Source: a bacterium | GTDB taxonomy: Bacteria > Patescibacteriota > CG2-30-54-11 > JBAXVQ01 | Reading direction: 5' to 3' | NCBI GenBank assembly: GCA_037128935.1 | Contig: JBAXVQ010000004.1 | Span: 1-58,541 of the forward strand | Length of the DNA stretch: 58,541 nt | Part shown: positions 684 to 22,430 of the stretch, piece by piece | Layout: each line of letters opens with the position of its first letter | Numbering within the stretch: the first letter of the stretch is position 1 | Translations under genes and position numbers: made by a program | Notes under the pieces: model-generated | Told to the model about the DNA's origin: nothing | Database searches by the model: none | What the model saw: only the letters and a program-made list of their open reading frames with translations

Positions 684-3140
684 TCACACAGTAAACCCCA
701 TCTTTTGTAAGTGTTCTTCAACCTTCTTCGTCAACCCATCAACATCTTCGGCGAGTGCCGGTAACGGCTCTGCGTAGCGGTCAACTAGGTCTTTGATCCT
801 TCCTGCAAGTGTCTGAGATAGACGGTCAACCTCGCCGATAACCCGTGTGGATAACTCCTGCATCCATTTTTTCTCAACAACCAATGTCTTTATCTCCTCC
901 TCCGTGAAGGTCGGGTATTTCAGAATCACGTTTTTCTCCAACGCTGCTTCTGCATCTTTGATTGCTTTCTTCGTCTCAGCTTCTTGCTCAAACAGTCCGA
1001 GGTATTCTTGTAAGAGTGCCAACTCATCAGCATCTTCGGCACTGGTTTTTATTTCTTTGATTCGCTTTTGGACACTGGTCTTGCTTATTTTTTCATTGTC
1101 GGTCACTTCTGCGAGTAACCCTTCCTCACCAGCATGCTCATCTTTGAGTGTTTCCATCTGGGCAGCGATGTCTTCCAGCGTACCCGTTAGCGCGTCAATG
1201 GTTGCCTTTTCGTTGTTGAAATAGGTATCTATGACCAGGGAAACAGGGATAATACTGCCATCCAGTCCTTTGATACCTTCCACGTCTTTTTTCTTGGTTG
1301 CACCGTCTTTTTTCGTTGTCTCCGTAAACTGACGAGAAACTGTGTTGCCAATCATCCAGCCATCAACGGTGATGCTGTGGGTATCGTCCTGTATCGTCTC
1401 TTCCCAGTACTGCATCAGGTGTTGGTAAATATCGTAGGCATCAATCAGGTGGAGTTTGGCGTATGCATCGAGCAGGTCGCTAGAGAGCTTGTGAATAATA
1501 GCCTTGGGGTGGTCGGCTGTGGTTAGTGATTGCAAATAGGATGATGCAGCGGCTGCCCAGTCGGAGAAGGTCGCCATGACGCTGTTTCTAAACGCATCAA
1601 ATTCTTCGTGATTGAGAATCGTCTTCTTCACCTCATCGCTGCCAATCGTTACTTCTGAGTATCCAGAGCGAGCATGTTTGGTAAACAGGGAGCTTCTCAA
1701 CGTTGGGCAAATATCCCAGTAGGGAGATAAGGCGGTGATATCCGCGTTTGGGATTCCGCCTTGTAAATGTGCGGCTATGTCCTGCAGATCTTCCACTTCC
1801 TGCGTATCAATGTATCGGGGAAGGTTGAGGTTGTAGTCGTTCTTCTGGATTTCTTCGTTGCTGACAAATCGTGAGAATTTCGGTATTTCTGCCTGAGAGC
1901 CCCAGACATCAACAATTCTGCGAATATCCTGCTCACGGAGACGGTTTTTGTTGCCATCTTTCGTGCATCCCTTTGATGCGTCAATCATGAAAATCCCCGT
2001 ACGCCCCCCTGCCCCGGCTTTGTCGAGAACAATAATGGATGCAGGAATACCCGTGCCATAAAAAAGGTTGGCTGGTAGTCCGATTATTCCCTTGATATAG
2101 CCACGGGAAATAATGTTCTTCCTGATATCGCCTTCTGTATTGCCTCGAAAAAGCACACCATGTGGGAGGATCACGGCACCTTTCCCTGTGCTTTTCATTG
2201 ATTTGAGAATATGGAGCAGAAAGGCAAAGTCGCCATTTTTCTTTGGTGGAATACCAAATCCCTGAAATCGTTCAAATTTATCATTTTCTGGTTGGAACTC
2301 GGTGCTGAATCCCGTTCTCCAGGCTTTATAGGAAAATGGAGGATTGGCAACCACGTAGTCAAATGTTTTGAGCGACTCCTGTTCTGTGAAGAGTGGGCTG
2401 GAGAGCGTGCTTTGTCCTTTTTTGATGACCGCAGTTGGTTTGGAATGCAGCCACATGTTCAAGACAGCAAGTCCAGCGGTGGCATTATCAAGTTCTTGCC
2501 CATAGATTGTAATCCCTTTGTGGGCTTCATCGGAGACTTTGAGCAGGAGTGATCCACTACCACAGGCGGGGTCGTACACGGTCTGCATCATGCCTGTAGA
2601 CTGGTTGGCATCAATCACTTTGGCAATAATGCGGGACACTTCAGCAGGGGTATAAAACTGACCTTTGCTTTTTCCTGATTCCACGGCGAATTTCTTCATG
2701 AGAAATTCGTAGGCGTCGCCTAACAAGTCATCACCTTCTGCTTTGTTCTTGCTGAAGTCCAAGTCAGGATTTTCAAAAATAGCAATTAGTTTGGAGAGCC
2801 GGTCTTGCATCTCTTTCCCTTTTCCCAGCTTGTCTTCGTCATTGAAGTTCACTTCATCAATCACCCCTTGGAGACCGTTTGCTTCCGCTAAAGCGGTGAG
2901 TACTTTGTTGATGCCGTCACCTATATCCGTTTTGCCTTTTAGCCGTTGCAAGTCTGCAAAACTGCCCCCGTTTGGTACATCAACAATCTGGTTTTCCTTG
3001 CCTGCAAATTTATCGGAGACATACCGGACAAAGAGCAGTACCAAGACATAATCTTTGTACTGTGACGCATCCATACTGCCACGCAGTTCGTCACATGCCT
3101 GCCAGATGGAGCTGTAGAGATGAGATTTTTTGATTGCCAT
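684..3140 (-). CDS. hsdM: Type I restriction-modification DNA methyltransferase subunit HsdM (N6-adenine), long form with a coiled-coil C-terminal extension
   Basis: 818 aa. N-terminal HsdM helical domain (LYSSIWQACDELRGSMDASQYKDYVLVLLFVRYVSDKF). SAM motif I VYDPACGSGSLL. Catalytic motif IV VVANPPFS. An hsdS fragment lies downstream. Confidence 0.9.
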   Translation of the reverse strand: MAIKKSHLYSSIWQACDELRGSMDASQYKDYVLVLLFVRYVSDKFAGKENQIVDVPNGGSFADLQRLKGKTDIGDGINKVLTALAEANGLQGVIDEVNFNDEDKLGKGKEMQDRLSKLIAIFENPDLDFSKNKAEGDDLLGDAYEFLMKKFAVESGKSKGQFYTPAEVSRIIAKVIDANQSTGMMQTVYDPACGSGSLLLKVSDEAHKGITIYGQELDNATAGLAVLNMWLHSKPTAVIKKGQSTLSSPLFTEQESLKTFDYVVANPPFSYKAWRTGFSTEFQPENDKFERFQGFGIPPKKNGDFAFLLHILKSMKSTGKGAVILPHGVLFRGNTEGDIRKNIISRGYIKGIIGLPANLFYGTGIPASIIVLDKAGAGGRTGIFMIDASKGCTKDGNKNRLREQDIRRIVDVWGSQAEIPKFSRFVSNEEIQKNDYNLNLPRYIDTQEVEDLQDIAAHLQGGIPNADITALSPYWDICPTLRSSLFTKHARSGYSEVTIGSDEVKKTILNHEEFDAFRNSVMATFSDWAAAASSYLQSLTTADHPKAIIHKLSSDLLDAYAKLHLIDAYDIYQHLMQYWEETIQDDTHSITVDGWMIGNTVSRQFTETTKKDGATKKKDVEGIKGLDGSIIPVSLVIDTYFNNEKATIDALTGTLEDIAAQMETLKDEHAGEEGLLAEVTDNEKISKTSVQKRIKEIKTSAEDADELALLQEYLGLFEQEAETKKAIKDAEAALEKNVILKYPTFTEEEIKTLVVEKKWMQELSTRVIGEVDRLSQTLAGRIKDLVDRYAEPLPALAEDVDGLTKKVEEHLQKMGFTV

Positions 3141-7709: not shown

Positions 7710-7952
7710 TTAGGCTTTTTTTGTTGCTGTAAAAATACTTTTTGAAGGTTTATTTGGGAACTTATTTTCAGTGAATTCACAGTATACATATGTGCCAGGC
7801 TTAAATTCCCATTCTTCAATTTGAGGGTCATAATCATCAGTAGGAAGTAATTGATAGATGTTATCTCTAATAGATAGCCCTTCTACTGGACGCCAAACTT
7901 CTGTCCCTTCATTTAACAATCTAATGAAAATAGTTTTTGTCTTAGTATTCAA
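7710..7952 (-). CDS. Candidate cognate immunity protein of the RHS toxin
   Basis: 80 aa. The TTG start overlaps the last 11 nt of the RHS gene. GGAG lies 6 nt upstream, inside the toxin coding sequence. This is the classical toxin-immunity translational coupling. Confidence 0.55.
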   Translation of the reverse strand: MNTKTKTIFIRLLNEGTEVWRPVEGLSIRDNIYQLLPTDDYDPQIEEWEFKPGTYVYCEFTENKFPNKPSKSIFTATKKA

Positions 7953-10900
7953 ATCCTTCTCCCCCTATATGTAAAATTTCATTAGTTACTGGATCCATTA
8001 CTATTGACTTTCCTGTCTCAACATCAACAAATCTAATAGCTGGATTTGATGGATTAATATTATTCACTGCAGGATAAGACATACCTTTTTGTATCGTGTT
8101 TTTGACCTGATCAAGTGTCCAATTTCTACTTTCCATTTGATTATTCCATTTTAGCTCTGATTTGTAGTCACCAAATTTAATTTCAGAGCTCTGAGATTGT
8201 GCCTTTTTAGTTAGTTCGGCAACATCTGACTGGCTTGTACTACTTGATTGGGTACTTACACTTTGATTTTCACTTTGTCCGTCCATTTTTAAACTCGACT
8301 TATCATCCTCCGGCATCTCACTTTGATTATTTCCAGCATTCCCACCTTCACTCGAGGGTTTCAGACTTTGATTACCTGAATCTACTTCTTCCTTCGCATT
8401 TGAAGGATTCGTTGATTTTGCTGAATCCTTGGTTGTACTTTCAACGACATCTGAAAGAGTTTCTCCATTGTTTGCAGCTGTCTGAATAATTGCCATCAGT
8501 TGTGGACTAAATTGTTCACTTACATCAATCGCCGCACATACAAGTAAACCTGCTATATAATATAAATCCCCTAGAGGAAGCGGGCCATCGGCAAATGTTG
8601 CCCACCACTGCGTAGCAGCCCATGTAGCTGCATAAGCTGAGTGTCCTGTAGGATCAGTATACTTTATTGGATTATTCAGAGCATAGGCATAACGATTGAA
8701 TGCTTGAGAATTGTTAGGACTAGGAATGATACTGTCTGTTTGCACAAACCTCCGAATCCTCGGATCATAATACCGTGCGCCGTAGTAGTAGAGACCGCTG
8801 ACTTTGTCGTGTCGTTGTCCTGTGAATTCGATGTCGATGTCTTGTTTGGTGCCGGTCTGTTCTTTGGTTTCTCCGTAGGGGTAATATTTGGTGCTGTTGA
8901 CTACAGCGCCGGTTTGGTCGGTGGTGAGGCTGCTGCTGCCGAGGTGGTCGTTATGGTAAAAGTATTTTTGGCCTTGATCGGTTTTTTCGCCGATGCGTTC
9001 TTTGTTGGCGTAGTAGTAGCTTTTGCTGCCCTTCCCTATTGTTACTTCGTAGCCTGAGTTTACGTAGTGCGTTACAACCCCATTTTCTACTTTCTTCACG
9101 CGATTTCCGGCGTAGTCGTAGGTCATTTCCATGATGACGGTGCCGTTGCGGGTGACTTTCTTGAGTTTGCCATCTGCGGTGTAGTCGTAACGGTCAGCGT
9201 CCCATCCTTGGGTCATGTTACCGTTGCGGTCGTAGATAAAATGCTGGTTGGTGGTGGCGGCTTGGGCGTTGGCTTTGGGGAGGAGGGAGGTGAGGATGTT
9301 GGATTGGGTATTCTGTTGTTGGGGTGCAGGTTTTGCTTGGCTGATGTTGCCTGTTGTGGTTGGAGTGGTTGTTGGGGCAATGGGGTATGTGGTTGAGGAT
9401 GGGATTGTGACATTTCCCAGTTGTGGGGATGAGACCTGCGGGCAGGTGGTTGTACCTAGGTAGCGGACGATGAAATAGTATGTTGTTGGCTGGTCGAGCG
9501 GAGCGAAGGTGATTGACTTGGTGAATTGCCCTGCTGCATCGGTTTGTACAGTAGCCAACATGTAGTAGCTATTGTTGCCGTCGGTGTTGTAGGCAATGGA
9601 GAGTGTTACATCTTTTCCTTCTGGGCTGTTTCCAGTGAATGTTGTGGCGTAGTTGTCTGTGGTGACTTGAATATCGATGGATGTGGGGCATGTGGTTTCT
9701 GGCTCTGAGGGCTGTGGAATTAAGACGTTTGTGTAGAGGATGCCAAGAGCAGCTAACGTGCTTACTCGAGTTGGTGAGTTTGTTGCGGTTCTCGTGTTGG
9801 TCGGTGTGATCGTGAAAGTACGGGTGAGTGTGTTGGTTGCTGTTCGGGTGAAGGTTTGGGTTGCGGTGAACGTGCGAGTGAGCGTTGGAGTAAACGTTCT
9901 TGTTGGAGTCGCTGTGAATGTACGGGTTGGGGTGTTCGTAAATGTTCGTGTAAATGTCTGCGTTGGGGTATTGGTGCGAGTGAATGTTGGTGTAAACGTT
10001 CTGGTTGGCGTTGGAGTGAATGTGCGAGTTGGGGTGTTGGTAAATGTTCTGGTAAATGTCTGCGTTGGGGTATTGGTGCGGGTGAATGTTGAAGTAAGCG
10101 TTCTTGTTGGTGTTGGAGTGAATGTCCGTGTTGGGGTATTGGTTGGTGTCCAAGTTGAGGTTGGGGTTGGGGTGTTCGTGCGGGTGAAGGTTGGTGTAGA
10201 GGTTCGGGTTGAGGTGGTTGTAAATATTCTGGTTGGAGTATTGGTTGGTGTTGGGGTATTTGTTCGAGAGGCAGTGTTTGTTGCGGTTCGGGTGAATGTT
10301 AACGTTGCGGTGAAGGTACGGGTGAAGGTGGGTGTGAAGGTTCTGGTTGGTGTCGCTGTGTTGGTGGGGGTGGCGGTATTGGTGAATGTTCTGGTAAATG
10401 TTGCAGTAGGTGTATTGGTTCGGGTGAAGGTGCGCGTTGGAGTGTTAGTGGAAGTCGCTGTATTGGTGAATGTTCTGGTGAATGTGGAGGTTGGCGTGTT
10501 GGTTGCTGTGCGGGTAAAGGTACTGGTAAATGTATTCGTTGCAGTTCGTGTTGGGGTTGGAGTAATCGTGTTAGTCCGTGTTGGCGTGTTTGTAGGTGTG
10601 TTGGTAGAAGTTCTGGTGGGCGTGTATGGAGTACCAGTTCTGGTCGATGTTGGAGTTGGGGTTTGCGTTTCCGGTGGAGTAGCTGTTGGAGAGTCAGCTG
10701 TTCCAATGTTTATCGAAGTAACTGCGTGTGGGCCTGCGGATTCTCCGTAGGTATATATTGCCTTTTCTTCAGTTCCGTTGACCGAAAGAATGTTACCAAT
10801 CGGGTCGTACTGGTAGTTTTCGCTTTTGCCTTTTGTTGAACGCCAGTCGGTTAATCGTTCTAGTGGATCATAGATAAATGTGCTGGTTTCCTGTGCTGGT

Positions 10901-13900
10901 GTGTCGGCGATGGCGAGGATATTTCCTACTGAGTCATAGGTGTAGTCAAACTGTTGAATGGTGTCTGTTTTGATCTGACGAAGGCGGAAATTTAATCCTT
11001 CTTCGGGGGTGTCGTTGTACTCGTATGATGTGCTTTTTCCGTTGGCAAATTGTTTGGTTTTGATCTTGCCGTTGGGGTAGTAGTCGATATTGGTTAGCAT
11101 GCCGCTGAGTGTTTTCACATCACCACGGCCGTTGAAGGTGTATTGGACAGCTTCACCATCGGGATATTTCTGGCTGATCACACGGTCGAGGCTGTCGTAG
11201 GTGCTTTCTGTGACGTATGCAGTGCTGTCGATGGTTTTGGTTTCTTTGATTGATCTCATGCGTTGATCGTAGGTGAAGGCGGTGCTGCCTGAGGGATCGG
11301 TAACTGAGGAAAGAGTGCCTTTGTATTGTTGGTCGTAGGTGTAGGTAATTTGGGAGCCGTCGGCAAGGTTTTTATGGATTGGTCGGTAGAGTTCGTCGTA
11401 GGTGGTGGTGTTGAGTTCACCTTTGGCATTGTTTTCTGAGAGCAGGTTACCAACTTTGTCGTAGCTGTAGTTCCAATTTCCCATGTCTGGATCATGCATC
11501 GAGATTTTGCGGTGCAGGGAGTCGTAGCCGATGGTGATGATGTTACCGTTGTGGTCTCTGGTGGTGGTGAGATCACCAAGAGGAGAGTAGGTGTATGTAG
11601 TGGTGTAGCGGTTATTTCCGTTGTGTTCGACAATGCTGGTAACTTTCTGCTGGGCGTTGAGGTAGAAGTCTTTTTCGATATTGTTTTCGTTGATTACGGT
11701 TTTTTTCCAGTGATCAAAGATGGTGCGAACCTGTCGGCCGTCTGGTTGAGTCAATGTTGTCTGACGTCCCATACAGTCGAAGGCGTTGGTGGTGAAAATA
11801 GTATCCGTTGGCGTGGTGTATGTTGCGGATGCAGGAACTAACAGCGGGACTCCTTGTTTGATTACTTTGCCGTTGAAATCGTAGAAGGAGTTCATCACGA
11901 TCTGTTGGGTAGGCGTTTCAGCTTCAGCTCTAGTTTGTAGCGTCTGTCCCAGTCCATCTGTCCATGTATAGGTATCGATAGTTCCAGGTTGTCCTGCCGT
12001 TTCTCGTTTGGAAACCATGGATCCTTCGGGGGCGTTGCCGTCGATGTAGTAGCTGTAGGATGTTGTGGGAAATTGCTCGGAGTCGTAAGGGAGGATGTCT
12101 TTTAGCTTTCTGCCAAACTGGTCGTAAATATAGCGCACAGTGATTCCGTTGGGATCAGTTGTGGAAAGGACATTTCCAGAGCCGTAGTCGTAGATTGTGG
12201 TGCTGGTAAATCCTCTTGCGTTTTTTTCTTCGGTTACATAGCGATGATAAACCGGATCATACGTTTTCCAGCTCGAGGTGCCCATAGGATCGATAACCTG
12301 AATGACGTTGCCGTAGGTGTCGTAGATGCTTTGTTTGACAGGGTTTTCTCCGCCTTCGAGCCATTGTTCTTTTTTCGTTTGATTGCCTCTGGTTGGTGGT
12401 TCACCATATGCAAGTCCATCGTAGCTGTAGAACGATTCGCTGATTTTAGTGGTTTTGTCCGAGCCGTAGAGCACAGATCGTTTTGCTGAACCAAGTATCC
12501 AAGCACTTTCGTTGTTGACGTACTCGTTCTCGGAATAGAGGTCATCAGCTGGGCTGTTGGTGTCACCAAGTGTTTCTGTTGTGAGTAGGTTGCCATAAAT
12601 ATCATATGCTGTGAATTTTGTTGTGCGTTGTTTGGGATTGGCTGCGACGCCATCGTAGGTAAAATCATCAACTTGGGTAAGTTGGCTGTTGTATATCCCT
12701 TCAGATACGGAACTGGTTAGTGTTGATAGAGAGCGTTTGAATGGGTTTCCGTTTTTGTCGTAGACCCAGCTTTCTTTTTTCTGACCTCGTCTAGCCATGT
12801 CTTGGTAATAATGATTTTCTGCTTTATTTCCGTCCTGATCAGTAACTACAACCTTTTCAAAACCAGCAAACTGTTTTTCCTGTCGATCGTAGAGCGCGTT
12901 GCTGTAGACATAGTTGGTTTTTACTTCTACCCTTTGTGGTCCGGTAATGCCGTTGTCTGTTAAGGTCTGGGAAACACACTGCATAGGGAAATTTACATCT
13001 TGATCGGTGTCGCTTCTTTGATACGTGTTGTAGGTCACGCCTGTGTTTTTACCACCTGTTGTTTTGATGCTGATCAGTTTTTCTTGTGATGGTGCGGTCT
13101 GGTTGGGGTATACATCCCACCAGCTTCCTGATGTTCCTTTGATAAGGCGAACATAGTCAGGGAGACCGTCGCTGTTAATATCCATCATGTCGGTTTGGGT
13201 GGATGAGGTGTCAATAACTCGAACTTCTTGAACACATGTTTTAAGACCATTTAATAAGCTGCACTGATTTATTGTAAGGGGTATATTCTGCTTAGTGTCT
13301 GCACTACTTCTTATTCCTGTAGAAAGATTGAGAGAAACGGTTGAGATGGAAGAAAAAGCCGTTCCATTGCCATAACTAAGTTGTATATTATGTGCAGGAA
13401 TATTTGCAATTAGGTAGTCTGGGTAACCATCGCCGTTCAAGTCAAAATAGTCTTTAGTAGTCGAAGATGCACCTATCCTTAGAAATTCACCAGGGTTAAC
13501 GGTTCTTGTTATTATTGGATCAAAGCCGTTGCCATTGTTCACTGATATTTCCCAATATCGTTTTCCGTAGATAACTTCCCCGTTTACAATACTGATTTCT
13601 ATAACGGTGTTTACCCAGTCGATCAGGCCATCATTATTGACATCCATTGGCATTGCTGCGGTATTTCCAGTGGGAATACCTTCGTAATAACGTTGTACTT
13701 GAGTCTGAAAGTCACCAGCCGGGGACCGAAAAGATATCAAACTTGATGATTGAGCAAGTAATGTCCCTGTTTTAAAACCATGTCCTGTGTTCAGATATAC
13801 TGTCCAACCTGCGTTTGTGCTTTCCACTGCATCTGCCAATCCATCACCATTTACATCAAATATATCTCTCGTTGTGTCACCATTGATCCATGTGCTTTCT

Positions 13901-15348
13901 CTGATGCCATCCCAAGTGAAGGGAACTGCCCATTGCACGGGTGTGGGAGCAAACCCCGATCCGGTATTGAGATATACGTCCCAATACAAACCTTTATACT
14001 CTATAAGATCAGGTTTTCGGTCGCCATCAATATCGAAAAAGTCTCGTGTAGCTTTGGCGAAAATTTCAATCCTGAATTCATCTGTTGGCAGTGGGATATT
14101 CCACGAAACTGGTGGTAAAAAATTACTTCCGCTATTTCTATAGACATCCCAGTGATCACCTTTCCTGACAACGTAATCAACTCGCCCATCGCCATCGATA
14201 TCCACACTCATCTGATTTCCTGTAAATGAGAATGTGTTTGTGCTAGATGTTCCTCCAGAGTTTGTGCCATCGGCATTGACCCAAGAGTACATTGTTTTGT
14301 CTGATGTGTTGGTTGAAAGGTGAATAGGTTTGTCAGTTGGACCGTTTTGAAACCACTGCTGTGCTGCACCGAATGTTGTAGCTGAAGTGTCGTAGTTAAA
14401 TTGTGTTGCAGGGAGAGCAGATGTCCCATCATTGCCAAACTCCGTTATTTTCTGGAGCAACGATCTTCCAGATACTGGGCTTGTTGAGTACTCTAGTTTG
14501 TATGAATTAACTCTTTTGCCATCAACGGTTACTCGCACCTCAGAAAGCCTTCTAGCTAGTCTGATCTTTGAGCCCTGATTGTAGTTGATTACTGAGTCGG
14601 GGCGGTCAGCTCCTTCTAATACAAAATCAATGATTCGTTTTTCTTCGTTGTTGTAGCGAATCTGTTTGGGGTAAATAGCTCCGATGTCGTTTGCTGTTGG
14701 GTTTTCTGCGTAGGAGTAAAATAGTTTGTTTCCGTTGGTGTCTTCTACCTGATCAAGACTCCATTTCCAAATCCAGTCTCTTGTTGAGGCTTTATGTTCT
14801 GAGTCAGCGTTGTAGCCAAACCGATAGGTAGTTCCGTCTTTTTTCTTTACAATCCAGTATTCACCCTTTTCGTTGCCTGTGCTGCCAGTAAGTTTCTGAA
14901 TCCAGAGATAGCTTTCGTTTTGGGTGTGGTAGCGGTTTTCTGATGGGACATAGATAAGTTTCTGACCGTCAAAACGGTAAAAGTCATCAGTAAGGTCATC
15001 GGGTGTGTAGTTTACATCCCTTTGAATCGCACTCGTTGAAAGTTGCCACCCCAAGCCAACTTCGCCTGCGTTTCCGCCACCACTGCTGTTGTAGCTGAGC
15101 CCAATACTTGGTGAAAGTCCATTTGTCCCAAGTGGGACGGAAAATGAGTAGCTGTAGGTCATCGAGCATGAAAACAAGTCTACGGAGTTTTCATTCTGTT
15201 TGCTTTCTGTTGGAGCTTTGGAGGAGTGATCGCTTTCTACTAACCCAGGGGAGTAGGCTGCAAAGACTTTTCCTGAAATGCCAAGTAGCAAGATCAATGT
15301 GGTAAAAACTTGCAAAAACAACTTTCGCATAATCACATACTCCTGCAT
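7942..15348 (-). CDS. Secreted SpvB / FG-GAP beta-propeller / RHS-YD repeat polymorphic toxin (Tc toxin BC-fusion-like) with RHS-associated core and a variable C-terminal toxin domain
   Basis: 2468 aa.
- Start and signal: the likely true start is MRKLFLQVFTTLILLLGISGKVFA at 15330, with AGGAG upstream, and it carries a signal peptide.
- SpvB-like N-terminus: SFSVPLGTNGLSPSIGLSYNSSGGGNAGEVGLGWQLS.
- Six FG-GAP/VCBS motifs: DIDGDGRVDYV, DIDGDRKPDLI, DVNGDGLADAV, DVNNDGLIDWV, DLNGDGYPDYL, DINSDGLPDYV.
- Many YD repeats: YDIYGNLL, YDTYGNVI, YDQFGRKL, and others.
- RHS core: YFYHNDHLGSSS…YYPYGE…FTGQRHDKVSGLYYYGARYYDPRIRRFVQTDS…NPIKYTDPTGH, ending near 8641.
- C-terminal tip of about 233 aa at 7942-8640, family unknown. 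Confidence 0.93.
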   Translation of the reverse strand: MQEYVIMRKLFLQVFTTLILLLGISGKVFAAYSPGLVESDHSSKAPTESKQNENSVDLFSCSMTYSYSFSVPLGTNGLSPSIGLSYNSSGGGNAGEVGLGWQLSTSAIQRDVNYTPDDLTDDFYRFDGQKLIYVPSENRYHTQNESYLWIQKLTGSTGNEKGEYWIVKKKDGTTYRFGYNADSEHKASTRDWIWKWSLDQVEDTNGNKLFYSYAENPTANDIGAIYPKQIRYNNEEKRIIDFVLEGADRPDSVINYNQGSKIRLARRLSEVRVTVDGKRVNSYKLEYSTSPVSGRSLLQKITEFGNDGTSALPATQFNYDTSATTFGAAQQWFQNGPTDKPIHLSTNTSDKTMYSWVNADGTNSGGTSSTNTFSFTGNQMSVDIDGDGRVDYVVRKGDHWDVYRNSGSNFLPPVSWNIPLPTDEFRIEIFAKATRDFFDIDGDRKPDLIEYKGLYWDVYLNTGSGFAPTPVQWAVPFTWDGIRESTWINGDTTRDIFDVNGDGLADAVESTNAGWTVYLNTGHGFKTGTLLAQSSSLISFRSPAGDFQTQVQRYYEGIPTGNTAAMPMDVNNDGLIDWVNTVIEISIVNGEVIYGKRYWEISVNNGNGFDPIITRTVNPGEFLRIGASSTTKDYFDLNGDGYPDYLIANIPAHNIQLSYGNGTAFSSISTVSLNLSTGIRSSADTKQNIPLTINQCSLLNGLKTCVQEVRVIDTSSTQTDMMDINSDGLPDYVRLIKGTSGSWWDVYPNQTAPSQEKLISIKTTGGKNTGVTYNTYQRSDTDQDVNFPMQCVSQTLTDNGITGPQRVEVKTNYVYSNALYDRQEKQFAGFEKVVVTDQDGNKAENHYYQDMARRGQKKESWVYDKNGNPFKRSLSTLTSSVSEGIYNSQLTQVDDFTYDGVAANPKQRTTKFTAYDIYGNLLTTETLGDTNSPADDLYSENEYVNNESAWILGSAKRSVLYGSDKTTKISESFYSYDGLAYGEPPTRGNQTKKEQWLEGGENPVKQSIYDTYGNVIQVIDPMGTSSWKTYDPVYHRYVTEEKNARGFTSTTIYDYGSGNVLSTTDPNGITVRYIYDQFGRKLKDILPYDSEQFPTTSYSYYIDGNAPEGSMVSKRETAGQPGTIDTYTWTDGLGQTLQTRAEAETPTQQIVMNSFYDFNGKVIKQGVPLLVPASATYTTPTDTIFTTNAFDCMGRQTTLTQPDGRQVRTIFDHWKKTVINENNIEKDFYLNAQQKVTSIVEHNGNNRYTTTYTYSPLGDLTTTRDHNGNIITIGYDSLHRKISMHDPDMGNWNYSYDKVGNLLSENNAKGELNTTTYDELYRPIHKNLADGSQITYTYDQQYKGTLSSVTDPSGSTAFTYDQRMRSIKETKTIDSTAYVTESTYDSLDRVISQKYPDGEAVQYTFNGRGDVKTLSGMLTNIDYYPNGKIKTKQFANGKSTSYEYNDTPEEGLNFRLRQIKTDTIQQFDYTYDSVGNILAIADTPAQETSTFIYDPLERLTDWRSTKGKSENYQYDPIGNILSVNGTEEKAIYTYGESAGPHAVTSINIGTADSPTATPPETQTPTPTSTRTGTPYTPTRTSTNTPTNTPTRTNTITPTPTRTATNTFTSTFTRTATNTPTSTFTRTFTNTATSTNTPTRTFTRTNTPTATFTRTFTNTATPTNTATPTRTFTPTFTRTFTATLTFTRTATNTASRTNTPTPTNTPTRIFTTTSTRTSTPTFTRTNTPTPTSTWTPTNTPTRTFTPTPTRTLTSTFTRTNTPTQTFTRTFTNTPTRTFTPTPTRTFTPTFTRTNTPTQTFTRTFTNTPTRTFTATPTRTFTPTLTRTFTATQTFTRTATNTLTRTFTITPTNTRTATNSPTRVSTLAALGILYTNVLIPQPSEPETTCPTSIDIQVTTDNYATTFTGNSPEGKDVTLSIAYNTDGNNSYYMLATVQTDAAGQFTKSITFAPLDQPTTYYFIVRYLGTTTCPQVSSPQLGNVTIPSSTTYPIAPTTTPTTTGNISQAKPAPQQQNTQSNILTSLLPKANAQAATTNQHFIYDRNGNMTQGWDADRYDYTADGKLKKVTRNGTVIMEMTYDYAGNRVKKVENGVVTHYVNSGYEVTIGKGSKSYYYANKERIGEKTDQGQKYFYHNDHLGSSSLTTDQTGAVVNSTKYYPYGETKEQTGTKQDIDIEFTGQRHDKVSGLYYYGARYYDPRIRRFVQTDSIIPSPNNSQAFNRYAYALNNPIKYTDPTGHSAYAATWAATQWWATFADGPLPLGDLYYIAGLLVCAAIDVSEQFSPQLMAIIQTAANNGETLSDVVESTTKDSAKSTNPSNAKEEVDSGNQSLKPSSEGGNAGNNQSEMPEDDKSSLKMDGQSENQSVSTQSSSTSQSDVAELTKKAQSQSSEIKFGDYKSELKWNNQMESRNWTLDQVKNTIQKGMSYPAVNNINPSNPAIRFVDVETGKSIVMDPVTNEILHIGGEGFEY
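9775..10700 (-). repeat. Imperfect tandem DNA repeats (about 102-bp register) encoding a ~310-aa Thr/Pro-rich (TPT/TFT/TRT) low-complexity tract inside the RHS gene
   Basis: For example, gtaaatgtctgcgttggggtattggtgcg(a/g)gtgaatgtt recurs at about 9951 and 10053. The protein reads …TPTNTPTRTFTRTNTPTQTFTRTFTNTPTRTFTPTPTRTF… Both strands give long artefactual ORFs. Confidence 0.85.
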
Positions 15349-15570: not shown

Positions 15571-17037
15571 CTATAACCCAATTAAATACTGATATATTTT
15601 CACCATCGCCAAACTGTCTAATCCGCAATATTTCAGTAGATCTTCACACCTTTTCTTCTGCTCTGTAGCAGTAAGCTTTCTATCAATCATTTCCCACCAA
15701 GAGAAAGAAGCTGCATTTCCGTTTTGAACCACCAATGATTTGTATGATACGTCAGGGACAAGCACTGGCAACACATTTTTTATTGAGCTACTGCCTTTAA
15801 ATCTCCTATCCACATACAATCCATCTTGAAAAATCCTCCGTAAGTCGTACATCCTGCTATTTACATCCTCTAGAAATGCTGTTCTATCCGGACACAACCG
15901 AGCTAACTCGTCGTTGCATCTTTTTTCAAACGACATGTTCCATGCAATAATGGTACCTGTTGCACCAATATGGCTTTGCAGAGTGTTAACCAACGCTGTA
16001 GAAGGGTCTTCGTTAGTAGTCGCTAAAAACTCTTTATGGTCTAGATTCCCGCTCTCTTCCAGAATATGCAATGAGTATTGAAACACTACCTGCTGGTATG
16101 CATGATATCCTTTGTATCGGGGAATTGCCGATGAAAACGTCTCATAATCGAGAAAATATAGTGGAAAAATCAGTTGCTGTAACTCATCTTTAATCTTTCT
16201 GCTATCAAATGAAACTGCTTTTTTCGTTATCGATTCCCAATGTCGTTTACTATCTTTTCTAGTCAAGTAAGACTCGGGGATATCTTTAATCAATAGCTGA
16301 TTCTTTTCAACCAATTCCAATAAATAATCATCATTTAGTTTTCCAGCAAGTTCATAGATGGATTCGTTCGGAATGTTGCCCCAACAGTACTCTTTGAAAA
16401 TACAGGGGTATGGGGAGTTACACTGTTTGAGGATCAGAACATTTGGCTCTTCGTTTTTTTTAAGTGTGCTCAGGGCATCTTCTACAAGTGCTGGCATATC
16501 TGGCATTATTACTTGCACTCTTTCAGAAACATCGGTAACGGTTTGCAACTTTTCTGGCTCAATATGAACTCCATCAAAAATGTACTCCTTATTGACGTGT
16601 ACGACATACACGCCTCCCACCGGAATATTCGCCTGCTGAAAACAATATACCTGAAATGCTAGGTCAAATAGGTGTTCTTCTTTTGCATTAGTTCCACTTT
16701 TCACTTCGTATATGTCCCACTTTTGTGTAGAACTGTTGTACTGAATAATGTCACAACGGCACTCAGTGTACTCGTTACGAATAACTGCTTGAAAGATTGT
16801 TGAAGCTGCAGAAGTAGGAAGGTTTTTCACTACTTCGTTATCACCATTTTCGGGTTGAGCAGAGATCACACCATCAGAAAATAGCTGATAGGCAAGCTTT
16901 TCAATGGTATATCCTTCCTCTTTGCGATACTTGGCTGCAATATCAAATTCTCCCTTAGGTAAAGCCTTATGATGGGCAAGCCAGAGAGCTTTTGAGCATT
17001 GTATATATTGTATAAAAGAGGTTTTAGTTAGCTTCAA
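15571..17037 (-). CDS. DUF2779-family protein: Cas4/RecB-like PD-(D/E)xK nuclease N-terminal half plus DEDD-like exonuclease C-terminal half (predicted)
   Basis: 488 aa.
- YIQCSKALWL N-terminus plus the C-x5-C-x5-C cluster CNSPYPCIFKEYC, a Cas4-like 1+3 cysteine pattern.
- WDIYEVKS (D..ExK).
- C-terminal half YFLDYETFSSAIPRYKGYHAYQQVVFQYSLH matches the remembered DUF2779 signature LDFET…P…PYQQxPFQxSxH.
- The start lies 9 nt after the mcrC stop. Confidence 0.7.
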   Translation of the reverse strand: MKLTKTSFIQYIQCSKALWLAHHKALPKGEFDIAAKYRKEEGYTIEKLAYQLFSDGVISAQPENGDNEVVKNLPTSAASTIFQAVIRNEYTECRCDIIQYNSSTQKWDIYEVKSGTNAKEEHLFDLAFQVYCFQQANIPVGGVYVVHVNKEYIFDGVHIEPEKLQTVTDVSERVQVIMPDMPALVEDALSTLKKNEEPNVLILKQCNSPYPCIFKEYCWGNIPNESIYELAGKLNDDYLLELVEKNQLLIKDIPESYLTRKDSKRHWESITKKAVSFDSRKIKDELQQLIFPLYFLDYETFSSAIPRYKGYHAYQQVVFQYSLHILEESGNLDHKEFLATTNEDPSTALVNTLQSHIGATGTIIAWNMSFEKRCNDELARLCPDRTAFLEDVNSRMYDLRRIFQDGLYVDRRFKGSSSIKNVLPVLVPDVSYKSLVVQNGNAASFSWWEMIDRKLTATEQKKRCEDLLKYCGLDSLAMVKIYQYLIGL

Positions 17038-17046
17038 AATCTGTAC

Positions 17047-18084
17047 TTAGTTGATTAAGGTGAGGAGGTCGTTGTGGATGAGTTGCCACTGTTGGTTTAG
17101 GTTTATTGTGCAAATGCGGATTTTGAAATTTTCAAATCGGTAGGAGTAACTGAAATCTTTGCCAACTGTGGGATAGAGTAAAATACCTGTTAGCGGTTTA
17201 TTGTTCTCTTTCGGACTGTTATGGAGGTAAGAAAACATCTGATAGAGGTTTCCCGAGTTGAACTTTTCCCCATATCCTCTCTTGTCATCAACAAGCCCCC
17301 CACGAGAATAGTATTTGGTGTCGATGATTATTTTCTGGTTTTCCGTTTCCAGAGATGTATCTGTGTTCATCGTTGGAAGATAGGTTATAAGGTCTTTGTC
17401 AGTCTCAGGAGAACAATTCCAACGAAAGCGTTTGCTGCCTACACACTGACAGCCTCCTTCTTTTGTGTAAAAATTTCGTACAAAGGCCTCGTAGAGCTTA
17501 CGCATTTTTTCTTCATCTCTAAGAAAATCAACAAAAGTAACCGCACCGTCCTCCTGATTTACCAACGAGTTCTCATAGATTAGCTGACAGATACTGATTA
17601 GCAGTCGATAAAATGAAGTATGTCTATGATAGTGAATTCTTTCAAAATGCTGTGCTGTAAGTTGAATATCCTGAACGTCTGAAAGATGGCGTTTGAGCTT
17701 TGCTAGTGGGTCTTTGGTCTTTTTCGAAACCTCTTTGCACCTCAAAAGATTGGCAATGGTTGCCTTGATAATCTGGTTTAATGGAACATTATAACTGAGT
17801 TCATCAAAGTCGCAATGCATCATAGCTTGCTGAGGTAGTAGTTTATTTATCGAGGAGGTAAAATTGATTTTGCCCCTTATTGCTGAACCTGCTTCAGAGT
17901 AATCAATATAACCTCTGTGCAATCCTTTTTTAAGCAAATAGGATAACCAGTTGCTGAGTACCATAGCACAAAGCTCGGCAACATTTCTCGCCTGTGATGC
18001 GTCGACTTGAACTATACCTTGCTTATCCAGCGTATTCCACGCATAGCAAAGGATGTAGTAGAGGTTTTGAATAGGAATGTTCAT
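17047..18084 (-). CDS. mcrC: McrC-like endonuclease subunit of a McrBC-type modification-dependent restriction system
   Basis: 345 aa, the same size as E. coli McrC. PD-(D/E)xK core …NTDTSLE…IIIDTKYY…LYQMFSYL. The start abuts the mcrB stop (18086/18084). Confidence 0.8.
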   Translation of the reverse strand: MNIPIQNLYYILCYAWNTLDKQGIVQVDASQARNVAELCAMVLSNWLSYLLKKGLHRGYIDYSEAGSAIRGKINFTSSINKLLPQQAMMHCDFDELSYNVPLNQIIKATIANLLRCKEVSKKTKDPLAKLKRHLSDVQDIQLTAQHFERIHYHRHTSFYRLLISICQLIYENSLVNQEDGAVTFVDFLRDEEKMRKLYEAFVRNFYTKEGGCQCVGSKRFRWNCSPETDKDLITYLPTMNTDTSLETENQKIIIDTKYYSRGGLVDDKRGYGEKFNSGNLYQMFSYLHNSPKENNKPLTGILLYPTVGKDFSYSYRFENFKIRICTINLNQQWQLIHNDLLTLIN

Positions 18085-18085
18085 G

Positions 18086-20050
18086 TTATTGCGTGAGGAT
18101 AGCCTTCATATCAACAACTTTAGCATTGTCATCAAACCAGTACTCTTCCAGTAAGGGTATAATTTCGCTTTCGACAACAGCGTTGTACCATTCTTCTTCT
18201 GTATAGACATGTGCGTCATAGGAGCAGAAATAACTATGTCCAATAGAAAAACCACTGCCAAGTTGGACATCTTTTTCAATCTCGCTGTTTAGTTCCTGAA
18301 GCTTTCTGGTGATTTTTTGTATTGTCTTTTCACTGACTTGTTTGCTTTGAAGAAAAGCGACGAACTTTTCATTGGCAAAGCATGGAGTAAGTGTAACAAA
18401 AGAAAAACGTCTCCTAAGTGCATAATCAACCATCGCCAGCGACCTGTCAGCCGTATTCATTGTCCCGATTATAAAAAGATTCTCAGGCACGAAAAATGTG
18501 TCTGTTTCTTCGTTGGAATACGTCAGTTGCAAAGCATACTCCTGACCTCGCTTGTCATTTTCAATGAGTAACATCAGTTCACCAAATATTTTACTCAGAT
18601 TTCCCCTATTAATCTCATCAATTATGAGTATAAATGGTTTTTCTGGCTGTTTTCTTGCACGTTCACAAATGTTATAAAAAATTCCATTTTTTAGATAGAA
18701 TGTTCCGTCGCTACTTGGGCGATACCCTTGAATAAAGTCTTCATAAGAATATGACTGATGAAACTGCACCATGGTGACTGCACTCAGATCTTTCTCACCC
18801 AATAAAGCATAGGCAAGACGTCTTGCAAAAAAAGTTTTTCCAACTCCAGGGGGACCTTGGAGGATTATGTTTTTCTTGTAGCTTAGCAATGAGCGGATGT
18901 CTCGCATTTTCTCATCGGAAATAAAGAGTTCTTCAGATGTTGGAATTTGAATTATTTCATCTGTGGGTAGGTTTTTCTTTATTCCTATAATGTTTAATAA
19001 GTTTGCTACATAATCAGGATAAGCTGTTAAGTCTGTAAATTTCTTGGTAACAAAATCAGAATCTACTTGCCATTCACCTGTTTTAAGCCATTTCACCTTC
19101 CTGACATGTTTGTAGTTAGCTTTTTTATCATCAAAGATGTAGTCCGATACAACTTCACCAATACCTAAAATAGTTCTTTTTCCTTGTTTTGCAAAAATGA
19201 AGTCCCCAACACGCAACTTATTCACAAACTGATCACATGCAAGTGTATTGTTTCGCTGATTTGTCTCTGATGGATACAATTGGTCGAAGAGTGGCTTCAT
19301 CTCATCTCTTGAATTAAAACTTGTGATATCTCCAAGCTTATCCCAGTCTAAACTTATTATTCCTTGACTTTTATAGTCATCCCACTGATGTTCATATGAA
19401 CCAGTTCCTATCACCCAATATTTTGAAGTAGAAGTCTGCTCTTTGACATCATATTTCTTATTTAGGTAGCTAAAAAACTGATCTAACTCAAGATTAAGGG
19501 GTAATAACGTTCTCTGCCCTATTACCCGAAGATATCTTTCCCTTACTGGACTAACTGCTTCGTTGAAATCAAGGAAATTTTTGGCATGATCGTTACTAGA
19601 GAGGTTTACTGGAATACCAAACAAGTGCAGTGCGAAAATATCTCTACTGTTAAACAGTACGAAATCGTCAGCAAATACATTTGCCAGTATTTCACTCAGT
19701 GAGCCTTTCCCAAAGCCTAAAATCTCATATTCCTTATCTGAGAAAATCTTGCTTACTCGAACTTCCAATGGATCTTTTCCATTTAGGAGATAGATAAATA
19801 CTTTCTTGTAGTGTTCAATTGGGTGATTTGGTCTTCCCACTGCTCTTTTTTTTGCCAGCGCCAAAGAATTAAAAGCATGGATATTGTTTCCAATTTGTTG
19901 CACATCTTCCCATTCTATCTTTTCTAACTTTTCTTTTTTGAAAAAACTCTGAAAGAAATCGTAATGCTTTTTTACTACTCCTTCAGTTTCTTTCAACCAA
20001 GTATCTGCAACTTCTTTATACTCCTGAAGGTATCCATCAAGTTTATCCAC
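18086..20050 (-). CDS. mcrB: McrB-like AAA+ GTPase subunit with extended N-terminal DNA-reader region (helical domain plus PUA/EVE-like module)
   Basis: 654 aa, GTG start. Walker A GPPGVGKTFFARRLA. McrB signature FILIIDEINRGNLSKIFGELMLLIE and IIGTMNTADRSLAMVDYALRRRF. The N-terminal ~370 aa includes YWVIGTGSYEHQWDDYKSQGIISLDWDKLGD…VGDFIFAKQGKRTILGIGEVVSDY…HVRKVKW. Confidence 0.88.
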   Translation of the reverse strand: MDKLDGYLQEYKEVADTWLKETEGVVKKHYDFFQSFFKKEKLEKIEWEDVQQIGNNIHAFNSLALAKKRAVGRPNHPIEHYKKVFIYLLNGKDPLEVRVSKIFSDKEYEILGFGKGSLSEILANVFADDFVLFNSRDIFALHLFGIPVNLSSNDHAKNFLDFNEAVSPVRERYLRVIGQRTLLPLNLELDQFFSYLNKKYDVKEQTSTSKYWVIGTGSYEHQWDDYKSQGIISLDWDKLGDITSFNSRDEMKPLFDQLYPSETNQRNNTLACDQFVNKLRVGDFIFAKQGKRTILGIGEVVSDYIFDDKKANYKHVRKVKWLKTGEWQVDSDFVTKKFTDLTAYPDYVANLLNIIGIKKNLPTDEIIQIPTSEELFISDEKMRDIRSLLSYKKNIILQGPPGVGKTFFARRLAYALLGEKDLSAVTMVQFHQSYSYEDFIQGYRPSSDGTFYLKNGIFYNICERARKQPEKPFILIIDEINRGNLSKIFGELMLLIENDKRGQEYALQLTYSNEETDTFFVPENLFIIGTMNTADRSLAMVDYALRRRFSFVTLTPCFANEKFVAFLQSKQVSEKTIQKITRKLQELNSEIEKDVQLGSGFSIGHSYFCSYDAHVYTEEEWYNAVVESEIIPLLEEYWFDDNAKVVDMKAILTQ

Positions 20051-20114
20051 TTATAGCTAACTCAAGAGTAAACCAAGTGCTATACTAGAACGAGTTAGTA
20101 AAAAGAAAAAACAA

Positions 20115-20444
20115 ATGGCATACAGTATCGATCTTAGAAAACGAGTAGTAACATTTGTGAACAACGGGGGCAGCAAAGCAGAGGCCGCAAGAAGATTCCA
20201 AATAAGTCTTTGGTGTGTACATGATTGGTGCACACGAACAAGTTTAAAACCAGCTCCAATGCACGGAAGACGAAGGAAGTTTTCTTGGGAAGCATTACAA
20301 CAGCACGTAGAAGAGTATCCATCAATGCTCATCAAAGAGAGAGCAGTGGTGTTTGGAGTTGCTGCAACAACTATTCTTAATGCCTTACAACAGATGCAAA
20401 TACGCTATAAAAAAAATGCTACGGTACAAAGAAAGAGACTATGA
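20115..20444 (+). CDS. IS630-family transposase, N-terminal HTH part (OrfA)
   Basis: MAYSIDLRKRVVTFVNNGGSKAEAARRFQISLWCVHDW is a typical IS630 HTH. It ends 28 nt after an A8 run (20409-20416). Confidence 0.8.
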   Translation: MAYSIDLRKRVVTFVNNGGSKAEAARRFQISLWCVHDWCTRTSLKPAPMHGRRRKFSWEALQQHVEEYPSMLIKERAVVFGVAATTILNALQQMQIRYKKNATVQRKRL

Positions 20445-20958
20445 ACAGCGTATACAGTATTTACAAGCCTTACGAGCATACATTACGGAGCAAGGGAGTG
20501 AGTATATTGTGTACATTGATGAAACAGGATTTGAGAAAGAAGGAGTAAATACTCACGGCTGGAGTAAGCAAGGGAAGCGACTCTACGGAGAACAGCCAAG
20601 CAACAGACGCCCAAGAACGAGTTTGGTTGCAGGAAAGTGGAACGAAACACTGCTCGCACCAGTGCTTTTTGCAGGAGTGATGGATGGTATATGGTTTCAT
20701 ACATGGTTGCAAGAACATCTACTCCCCGAGCTACCGGCACCATCACTCCTGATACTGGACAATGCACCATTCCACAAAAAGGCAGCAATACGCGCACAGC
20801 TTGAAGGGACACCTCATACGGTACTGTTTCTTCCACCATATTCCCCCGACTTCAACCCAATTGAACAAGTATTTGCCTGGATGAAGAACAAGCGCAAACA
20901 CGTTCCTGACATTTCTCTCGATGAACTCGTTTTGTCGTATGGTTCTTTTTTGAGTTAG
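20353..20958 (+). CDS. IS630-family transposase, DDE catalytic part (OrfB, +1 frame relative to OrfA)
   Basis: YIDETGF … ILDNAPFHK … PYSPDFNPIEQVFAWMK is the DD(34-35)E-type triad context of IS630/Tc1. A fused reading requires the loss of one A in the A8 run. Confidence 0.8.
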   Translation: MELLQQLFLMPYNRCKYAIKKMLRYKERDYEQRIQYLQALRAYITEQGSEYIVYIDETGFEKEGVNTHGWSKQGKRLYGEQPSNRRPRTSLVAGKWNETLLAPVLFAGVMDGIWFHTWLQEHLLPELPAPSLLILDNAPFHKKAAIRAQLEGTPHTVLFLPPYSPDFNPIEQVFAWMKNKRKHVPDISLDELVLSYGSFLS

Positions 20959-21175
20959 CTATAGTACTCCTTATTGGTTGTTGTTTATACTTTTTATCTC
21001 CATCACATTATAGGCAATACTCGAAATTAATTTAAATTTTCAAACAGTATATTGCTGTAACTGCCTTACAGAGGACTCTTTTATTTTGGTAAAGCTGCAT
21101 TTCTTCAACCTTGTTTCCTAAAAATACTTTCAATTCTTCACTTGCATTCTCTATCCCTGATGAAGCATTCAGTGC

Positions 21176-21208
21176 TACAAAAAGAAGGAGGCATCTACAA
21201 GATGCCTC
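21176..21208 (-). terminator. Rho-independent terminator downstream of 21260-21895
   Basis: Minus strand: GGAGGCATC-ttgta-GATGCCTCC followed by ttcttttg. Confidence 0.5.
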
Positions 21209-21259
21209 CAACGTGAGTGAATGGTTATTTAAATTGTACGGGACAAAAATCTTTGCTCC

Positions 21260-21895
21260 CTACTTCTTCTTATCGTAGAAAAAGATGCCCCAAATATTTT
21301 TTTCTCTGTACAGCGAGCTGAGTGGCTGACTCTTACCGCAGTTGCCTGGGCCGGAGTTGTTGACGAGGTATTCGCCGTTTTTCTTTCCGACGATTAGTAC
21401 GGCGTGTTGGTAACCGTTTTTGGTGATCCCCTGTAGGATTGCGGGCTTGCCAGCACGGAGAAACTCGTCAACTTTGGATTTTACTTCGTTGTCCCAACGG
21501 TTGCGGTACTGTGGATACACCCAGACTAGGTTTGGGGAGCCAACTGCTGCCCATTTCATATACTCACTTCCACCGTTTGCTTTCTTTACTTTTTCTGGTG
21601 TAGTGAAATTGGGACTGAAGGTGTTGTATAGCATTGTTCTAGCCATGAGATAGCATGGTCCAGAACGTTTTTGGCAAAAAAGTGGTGAGTTAGTTGTAGG
21701 AATATTATTGGGGTCTACACCAACGCTTTTTGCTGGTGCTTTTGTGGTTTGGGCAGTTTCACCTTTGGAGTAAAGCTGCTCTTTTAGCGAGGAAAATTTT
21801 TCTGCTGGAGCTGCGAGGGAGAGAGCGGGAATAAGTAGGAATGTTGCAACTAAAGCTGAGGTGATTTTTTTCATAGTGTGTGGTCCTCTGATCAT
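21260..21895 (-). CDS. Secreted protein, possible papain/C39-like cysteine peptidase fold
   Basis: 211 aa. Signal peptide MKKITSALVATFLLIPALSLAAP. A Cys (GPCYLMARTMLYN) and a distal His (NGYQHAVLIVG) have the spacing typical of C39-like peptidases. This is weak motif-only evidence. Confidence 0.4.
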   Translation of the reverse strand: MIRGPHTMKKITSALVATFLLIPALSLAAPAEKFSSLKEQLYSKGETAQTTKAPAKSVGVDPNNIPTTNSPLFCQKRSGPCYLMARTMLYNTFSPNFTTPEKVKKANGGSEYMKWAAVGSPNLVWVYPQYRNRWDNEVKSKVDEFLRAGKPAILQGITKNGYQHAVLIVGKKNGEYLVNNSGPGNCGKSQPLSSLYREKNIWGIFFYDKKK

Positions 21896-21944: not shown

Positions 21945-22430
21945 TTATTTGATAATTTTGAAGTAGTAAAGCGCATTGATAGCCGTGATTACTATCATTG
22001 TGAGAAAAATAGCACTGAGAAAAACGAGTATGACATGGGTCGAGGAGTATGTTACCGGATCAGATAGATTTTGCAAAGCCGGCTGCTGTGGCGGGGTTTT
22101 GATGGAGTCCATCACCGTGTTCTGAATCTCGACTTTTGCTTCTTTTTGCACTGGTGCGGTCACTGCATCCATTGCTACTGCTTCTGGTGATGTGTCGGGC
22201 ACTGCTGTGACAGGTGGTTGATTCTGGGTGAGGTCTATAATGTTTTCGCGAGGAACACCTGAGCGTTTGATCGGTGTTAGTGCGTAGCGAACTACTGGGC
22301 GTGGGTCATCAGATGGTGGAGCAGCAGGAATCGGTGCTTTTCTTTCTCTGGTTGCTCTTCGAGGTGTTTTTTTTGCAGCACTGTTAATAACTACTGCTGG
22401 CGTTTTTTTAGTTTTTGTTTTTGTTGGCAT
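21945..22430 (-). CDS. Pro/Thr-rich tail-anchored membrane protein, unknown function
   Basis: 161 aa. Basic N-terminus, C-terminal TM segment VILVFLSAIFLTMIVITAINALYYF. SD GTGAGG 7 nt upstream of the ATG. Confidence 0.55.
   Translation of the reverse strand: MPTKTKTKKTPAVVINSAAKKTPRRATRERKAPIPAAPPSDDPRPVVRYALTPIKRSGVPRENIIDLTQNQPPVTAVPDTSPEAVAMDAVTAPVQKEAKVEIQNTVMDSIKTPPQQPALQNLSDPVTYSSTHVILVFLSAIFLTMIVITAINALYYFKIIK

Follow-up and report, generated by a model that had tools for sequence, protein, structure and literature searches.

A DUF2779 dual-nuclease gene directly behind mcrBC in a Patescibacteria contig: McrBC as a probable interchangeable partner rather than part of a three-subunit system

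In the McrBC system of Escherichia coli K-12, which belongs to the NxxD branch (Bell et al. 2024, PMC11090510), mcrB is followed by mcrC and the two genes nearly overlap; McrB has an AAA+ domain with Walker A, Walker B and NTAD motifs, and McrC has a D...DxK nuclease. Among the EVE fusions of defence systems, EVE-McrB is described as the most frequent (Bell, Wolf and Koonin 2020, PMC7641849). The fusion of DUF2779 with DUF83 was reported in 2014 as the RNase H-like family F.17, a predicted 3'-5' exonuclease (Majorek et al., PMC3985635), and MMSYN1_0389 of JCVI-syn3.0, which is quasi-essential, was analysed in 2026 as a Cas4-like plus DEDDy protein, with DUF2779 treated as a separate solo lineage (PMC13621843). 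The present work concerns a locus in which these two kinds of gene stand side by side. The window, that is, the whole stretch of DNA analysed here, comprises 58,541 nt of contig JBAXVQ010000004.1 from a Patescibacteria assembly (GCA_037128935.1; 2.1 Mb, 146 contigs), and in it mcrB and mcrC are directly followed by a DUF2779 gene. A first-pass annotation of the sequence had described the three genes as an McrBC system extended by a dedicated third gene. To our knowledge, no function has been shown in the literature for any DUF2779 member.

The mcrB-mcrC pair of the window agrees with E. coli K-12 McrBC in gene order, in the near-overlap of the genes and in all of the motifs named above for both proteins. 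It differs in the putative reader part of McrB, which consists of a helical and a tentatively EVE-like domain and not of DUF3578/ADAM, in an IS630 insertion between the Shine-Dalgarno (SD) sequence and the start of mcrB, and in the DUF2779 gene located 9 nt after mcrC. As in the EVE-McrB fusions (PMC7641849), a helical, PUA-like and AAA+ layout is shared by the homologues, whereas the window's McrB lacks the extra N-terminal EVE domain of its relatives of 810-820 amino acids (aa). The DUF2779 protein has the same Cas4-like DUF83 plus DEDD(y) build as other members of the PF11074 family (F.17, MMSYN1_0389), with the D/E/K and DEDDy residues kept; unlike the Mycoplasma protein, which keeps two of the four iron-sulphur (Fe-S)-type cysteines, it keeps all of them, and its gene is found immediately after mcrC, in what looks like a restriction/toxin island. 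With CRISPR-associated Cas4 and the AddB/RecB-family nucleases it shares the N-terminal fold, the metal-binding D...ExK motif and the 1+3 cysteine cluster; in contrast to these nucleases, it lacks a helicase domain and carries a fused DEDDy exonuclease domain. No Cas1/Cas2 partner and nothing else Cas-like was present among the annotated open reading frames (ORFs) of the window, although no search aimed at CRISPR or cas was made.

Our overall reading, to which we assign a probability of about 0.62, is that the dual nuclease is portable and that McrBC is one of its interchangeable upstream partners, not the core of a three-subunit enzyme. The association of the genes was analyzed in 80 loci of the closest DUF2779 relatives, which were drawn from 185,579 species genomes and included flanks of up to 10 kb, in 80 metagenomic loci centred on the closest McrC relatives, and in a phylum sample of 401 Patescibacteria genomes (0.6-1.3 Mb). 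The ORFs in all loci were called mechanically, and the samples represent the closest relatives and three lineages rather than a full census. DUF2779 was found in 60 of the 401 genomes, mostly as a single copy; the window's genome is the only one of the 401 with both DUF2779 and McrC, and no McrC was found in the other 59 DUF2779-bearing genomes. Neither McrB nor McrC was present at any of the 80 closest DUF2779 loci. When other genomes with both genes were considered, DUF2779 and McrC were neither adjacent nor near each other in any of 12 Saprospiraceae genomes or of three genomes from the order of the Leptolinea locus L044 (G403). From the side of McrC, a single locus out of 80 (L136) carried DUF2779, and the fetched flanks of the remaining 79 did not.

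L136 (metagenome contig Ga0210400_10000389, 1-13050) is the sole other DUF2779-McrBC neighbourhood among the loci examined. There, the order is opposite to that of the window: DUF2779, which is 29% identical to the window's protein and lies behind a resolvase gene, is located upstream of an 813-aa EVE-McrB with a gap of 199 nt. In this defence island, Nmad3, a small serine resolvase, DUF2779, EVE-McrB and McrC stand in that order, and McrC is followed by an unknown gene, a fusion of an MmeI/Eco57I-like type IIG enzyme with a Schlafen AlbA_2 domain, and a helicase. A specific linkage of McrBC with DUF2779 does not recur beyond that of two island-dwelling genes, and the claim of a dedicated third gene was not borne out (0/80 DUF2779 loci, 0/15 genomes with both genes, 1/80 McrC loci). 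The neighbourhood comparison that had been proposed for this claim found essentially no recurrence of DUF2779 beside McrBC.

What does recur around DUF2779 is restriction. In Patescibacteria, 54 DUF2779 loci were compared over 8 kb on each side with 40 control regions from the same genomes, each located on the contig of a DUF2779 locus at a distance of 50 kb or more. A restriction-modification (R-M) methyltransferase or HsdR was located within 8 kb in 19 of the 54 loci and in 0 of the 40 controls (Fisher p = 9e-6). As shown by PADLOC, 348 matching families were found among 121 ORFs near DUF2779 versus 30 among 122 control ORFs; the former included type IIG, type II methyltransferase, type III and DrmMI models, and the control matches were mostly housekeeping cross-hits. 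Both comparisons agree with the enrichment in defence neighbourhoods that the first-pass annotation had proposed to check. The R-M genes were usually a few genes away from DUF2779 and not adjacent to it. Recurring neighbours included DNA methyltransferases, HsdR and serine recombinases, and resolvases were found at 6/54 loci versus 1/40 controls. When the ORFs within 6 kb were clustered, no conserved neighbour family was obtained, the best family being present at 10 of 80 loci. A within-locus comparison of ORFs closer than 3 kb with those beyond 6.5 kb yielded R-M genes in both sets; it was therefore unusable as a control and was replaced by the matched regions.

The gene directly upstream of DUF2779 is variable. 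In 60 of 125 loci, the upstream gene is on the strand of DUF2779 and stops no more than 30 nt from the DUF2779 start. The defence-type partners among these 60 were ResIII helicase-nucleases (5), GmrSD (3), AAA_21/AAA_15 ATPases (3), HsdR-type (2), WYL (2) and Eco57I (1) proteins, and the housekeeping partners included sigma-70 (3), MreB and SAM synthetase. Given that so many loci show tight coupling with varied partners, the 9-nt gap of the window is what the DUF2779 family usually shows and is no peculiarity of McrC. The DUF2779 gene is widespread and autonomous, is mostly present once per genome, and is located preferentially in the R-M-rich islands of Patescibacteria, typically tightly behind a variable partner. 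The useful result is the protein itself, an uncharacterised and widespread two-nuclease protein concentrated in restriction-rich islands of bacteria with tiny genomes, where its gene is as a rule translationally coupled to that of a changing partner, in many cases a restriction nuclease. It also calls for caution, as tight spacing in compact genomes is poor evidence for a dedicated multi-subunit system.

Two further origins or roles of DUF2779 were considered and rejected. DUF2779 was found at only 14 loci in 2.9 million viral contigs, which argues against a phage origin. In the genome of the window, a PDDEXK_1 domain also occurs at the C-terminus of a 998-aa ORF (G000:C102:5322-6041), and ORFs of approximately 950-1100 aa with this domain were found in roughly two thirds of 45 DUF2779-bearing genomes of the phylum that were checked. 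These ORFs are taken to be AddA/AddB-like on the basis of the PDDEXK_1 domain. Because such a protein of about 1000 aa co-occurs with DUF2779 in the window's genome and in most of those checked, a role of DUF2779 as a simple substitute for RecBCD/AddAB is not supported.

Based on profile searches, residues 294-418 of the DUF2779 protein match PF11074 (E 1e-41; 142.1 bits vs a cut-off of 23.3) and residues 9-179 match Cas4/DUF83 PF01930 (E 9e-7; 29.5 bits vs a cut-off of 22.7). The motifs named in the first-pass annotation are all in place, namely C14 and C206-x5-C212-x5-C218, D96...E111-x-K113, and D297-Y-E299 (FLDYET), the DEDDy set being D297, E299, D398, Y470 and D474. In 25 homologues, C14, D96, E111, K113, C212, D297, E299, D398, Y470 and D474 were invariant, and C206 and C218 were nearly so. 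The AlphaFold (AF2) model (mean predicted local distance difference test, pLDDT, 89.8) matched Cas4 (8d3l, E 6e-6) in a Foldseek search, with MGME1, RecE and AddAB ranking lower, and its second half gave weak matches to RNase T and 3'hExo. These sequence and model data characterise the protein as a predicted Cas4-like Fe-S PD-(D/E)xK nuclease fused to a DEDDy exonuclease-like domain; the cysteine pattern, the D..ExK motif and the exonuclease-like half with its DxE motif had all been recognised in the first-pass annotation. This dual-nuclease architecture is already published (PMC3985635, PMC13621843) and is not new.

Only one genome of the same class has a DUF2779 gene (G072; locus L177, G072:C307, 675-1973); its protein is 34% identical to that of the window and has no cysteines at the C-x5-C-x5-C position. 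Relatives from other classes reach 47% identity and keep the cluster. The closer match to other classes, together with the missing cluster in G072, suggests that DUF2779 has been exchanged horizontally and that some lineages have lost the Fe-S site. A comparison of synteny with G072 was uninformative, as the contig is 1974 bp long and its downstream ORF is unrelated.

With regard to mechanism, DUF2779 probably attacks free DNA ends from both polarities, with the Cas4-like head acting 5'-3' and the DEDDy head 3'-5'. Such an enzyme could degrade the fragments made by a co-expressed DNA-cutting defence enzyme. We tentatively extend this to a proposal against which the odds still stand: DUF2779 may be a partner-agnostic, dual-polarity exonuclease that is recruited in cis, as the last gene of the operon, by the genes of DNA-cutting defence enzymes in Patescibacteria and that finishes the cleaved invader DNA; the partners observed are type I/III helicase-nucleases, type IIG enzymes, type IV GmrSD and, in the window, McrBC. 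If this were true, DUF2779 would be an undescribed, widespread accessory class of restriction-based immunity and not a housekeeping nuclease. If the link with the islands reflects function, restriction in Patescibacteria may commonly be a two-step process, in which a specific cut is followed by generic degradation of the ends.

The McrBC module was analyzed in the same way. McrC matched PF10117 (E 3e-36; 125 bits vs a cut-off of 23.9) and scored 336 bits with the NCBIfam McrC equivalog, just below its cut-off of 338; its nuclease residues D242 and D255-x-K257 were invariant in 20 homologues. The C-terminal half of McrB matched AAA_5 (E 1e-25) and the C-terminal half of the NCBIfam McrB model (E 5e-103), and it contains Walker A (GPPGVGKT, 399), Walker B (DEINR, 478) and the NTAD signature (532). 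In the AF2 model of McrB (pLDDT 88), residues 1-200 form a helical domain, residues ~210-355 an EVE/PUA-like alpha/beta domain and residues 375-654 the AAA+ domain, and the last of these matched E. coli McrB (6hz4) in Foldseek with E 1e-28, 55% identity and a TM-target of 0.87-0.91. The score of the whole protein with the NCBIfam model (345) was under the equivalog cut-off of 637 because the N-terminus differs. According to these sequence features, mcrB and mcrC are assigned to the conventional NxxD-type, modification-dependent (type IV) restriction modules; the two proteins are canonical and complete without a partner gene. McrC was found in 3 of the 401 genomes of the Patescibacteria sample, and given this rarity in the phylum the module was probably acquired horizontally. 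The view of McrBC is thus unchanged: the system of the window is a standard one, its putative reader fusion is of a known type, and an insertion sequence has probably silenced it.

The N-terminal region of McrB had been described as a set of reader domains that includes a PUA/EVE-like module. Residues 1-200 are all-helical and had no family match in the local Pfam library. An alpha/beta domain is predicted at ~210-355, with an EVE-like topology in the AF2 model, and the sequence-based evidence for EVE itself is weak. A Pfam EVE match of E 0.015 and matches to PADLOC PDC-S02 (E 4e-16) were obtained for this segment; a profile search of PDB sequences gave no significant match, nor did an hhalign alignment to a bona fide EVE segment, and the Foldseek search with full-length McrB returned AAA+ matches only. 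Full-length McrB homologues are common at 43-49% identity, and many of them are annotated as EVE (PF01878); those of ~670 aa share the architecture of the window's protein. The relatives with the additional N-terminal EVE domain are mainly from Bacillaceae. The label 'PUA/EVE-like' for residues ~210-355 should accordingly be read as weakly supported.

The features of the locus are listed in Table 1. The sequence read at the mcrB/mcrC junction is TAA-c-ATG and that at the mcrC/DUF2779 junction is TAA-gtacagatt-TTG, so that the tight packing of the three genes, with gaps of 1 and 9 nt, holds as first described. A scan of the region found no terminator-like site between the three genes, and the count of promoter-like sites in the region was not above the expectation from shuffled sequences. 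The tight gaps and the lack of a terminator-like site between the genes make co-transcription of mcrB, mcrC and DUF2779 plausible, in line with the single transcript that had been suggested.

Table 1. Coordinates of the features of the mcrB-mcrC-DUF2779 locus (positions in the window).
Feature	Positions	Strand	Remarks
mcrB	18086-20050	minus	654 aa, GTG start; McrB-type AAA+ GTPase
mcrC	17047-18084	minus	345 aa, ATG start; N-terminal McrB-binding region + PD-DxK nuclease
DUF2779 gene	15571-17037	minus	488 aa, TTG start; Cas4-like half + DEDDy exonuclease-like half
IS630-family insertion sequence	20054-20961	plus	908 bp; divergent from mcrB
IS630 helix-turn-helix part (HTH_Tnp_IS630)	20115-20444	plus	overlaps the DDE frame
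IS630 DDE_3 part	20353-20958	plus	second of two overlapping transposase frames
Shine-Dalgarno AAGGAG	20967-20972	minus	6 nt from the mcrB GTG in the empty site; now 914 bases away
Promoter-like TTTAAA-18-TATAAT	21007-21036	minus	10/12, best of the region; candidate native mcrB promoter, consensus match only
Intrinsic-terminator-like hairpin + T-run	21187-21209	minus	ends the upstream gene 21260-21895; 5' limit of the mcr transcription unit

The insertion sequence (IS) was inserted at a TA exactly between the SD sequence of mcrB and its GTG start. Its terminal inverted repeats match at 12 of 12 positions, the TA is duplicated at 20052-20053 and 20962-20963, and the element has no second copy in the assembly. 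The two overlapping frames suggest that the split transposase is a frameshifted or programmed-frameshift gene. When the IS was removed in silico, the sequence TATAAT...AAGGAG-TACTAA-GTG was restored, in which the -10-like box, the SD and the mcrB start are at normal spacing. As a consequence of the insertion, mcrB is without its ribosome-binding site, and its likely promoter lies 908 bp further off. The IS630 probably weakens the expression of the mcrB-mcrC-DUF2779 string in this contig, impairing mcrB with a polar effect on mcrC and DUF2779. The perfect 12-bp termini and the intact TA duplication, as well as the three intact frames, suggest a recent event.

Three other explanations of the arrangement were weighed against the reading of McrBC as an interchangeable partner. 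Under one of them, DUF2779 is the third subunit or obligate effector of a dedicated three-component system and processes the breaks made by McrC; the gaps of 1 and 9 nt without a terminator-like site between the genes, as well as the second DUF2779-McrBC neighbourhood in L136, speak for it. We nevertheless regard it as very improbable, because McrBC was absent from all 80 loci of the closest DUF2779 relatives, the genes were adjacent in none of the 15 other genomes with both, and 79 of 80 close McrC relatives had no DUF2779 in the fetched flanks. Even L136 has the opposite order, the 199-nt gap and a DUF2779 of 29% identity, the main text of the McrBC census paper contains none of the words Cas4, DEDD and exonuclease, and the McrB-McrC pair is canonical and needs no further gene to be complete. 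Another explanation is that the operon was silenced by the IS630 and that the three genes are becoming pseudogenes, so that their arrangement has no present function. The IS does stand between the mcrB start on one side and the SD with the promoter-like site on the other, and its transposase, which points away from mcrB, provides no read-through. All three frames are intact with every catalytic motif present, though, the perfect 12-bp termini and the intact TA duplication suggest a recent insertion, and an outward promoter or SD-independent initiation is possible; a decaying locus is quite unlikely on this evidence.

A coincidental arrangement, in which DUF2779 is a host DNA repair or recombination nuclease unrelated to defence, upstream of which an acquired mcrBC and later the IS630 landed, appears unlikely, although a number of observations favour it. 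DUF2779 is present in 60/401 genomes of the phylum, mostly in a single copy, its Mycoplasma relative is quasi-essential (PMC13621843), several of its tight partners (sigma-70, MreB, SAM synthetase) are housekeeping genes, and it is seldom found on viral contigs (14 loci). Against it stand the strong enrichment of R-M and defence genes near DUF2779 relative to matched regions of the same genomes and the recurrence of resolvases nearby (6/54 vs 1/40 controls). The gene is also patchy (15% of genomes), and the same-class relative is 34% identical without the cysteine cluster, whereas those of other classes reach 47%; the patchiness and this identity pattern are more in keeping with mobile cargo than with a repair gene inherited vertically. 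Several points weigh against the interchangeable-partner reading as well. The polarity and the clean-up role of DUF2779 are predicted from folds and residues. A large share of the upstream partners are housekeeping or unknown genes, and these, together with the quasi-essential relative in the minimal Mycoplasma genome (PMC13621843), fit a general role in DNA metabolism as well as one in defence. The R-M seeds of the 19/54 versus 0/40 test came mostly from DUF2779-proximal loci, a possible bias from which the PADLOC scan is free. The promoter rules of Patescibacteria are poorly known, which makes the effect of the IS on expression conditional. Finally, the two independent DUF2779-McrBC neighbourhoods (the window and L136) exceed the approximately 0.02 estimated for random placement among 80 McrC loci, so that some functional affinity of DUF2779 for type IV restriction may exist; GmrSD, another type IV enzyme, is the direct upstream partner in 3 of the 60 coupled loci.

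Upstream of the IS630, the two minus-strand genes at 21260-21895 and 21945-22430 had no Pfam match; one encodes a 211-aa protein with a signal-peptide-like N-terminus and the other a 161-aa protein that is rich in Pro, Thr and Ala and has a hydrophobic C-terminal stretch. No homologues of these two genes, or of the small genes downstream of the RHS toxin described below, were found in the fetched DUF2779 and McrC loci, and these neighbours of the window were therefore rejected as part of a shared cassette. A 2468-aa RHS/TcdB-like/FG-GAP repeat protein is encoded at 7942-15348, immediately downstream of DUF2779 and in its orientation, and HsdM is located at 684-3140. The first 21 kb of the window (0-21 kb) look like a toxin and restriction island, within which the GC skew at 9-12 kb is extreme (up to +0.54).

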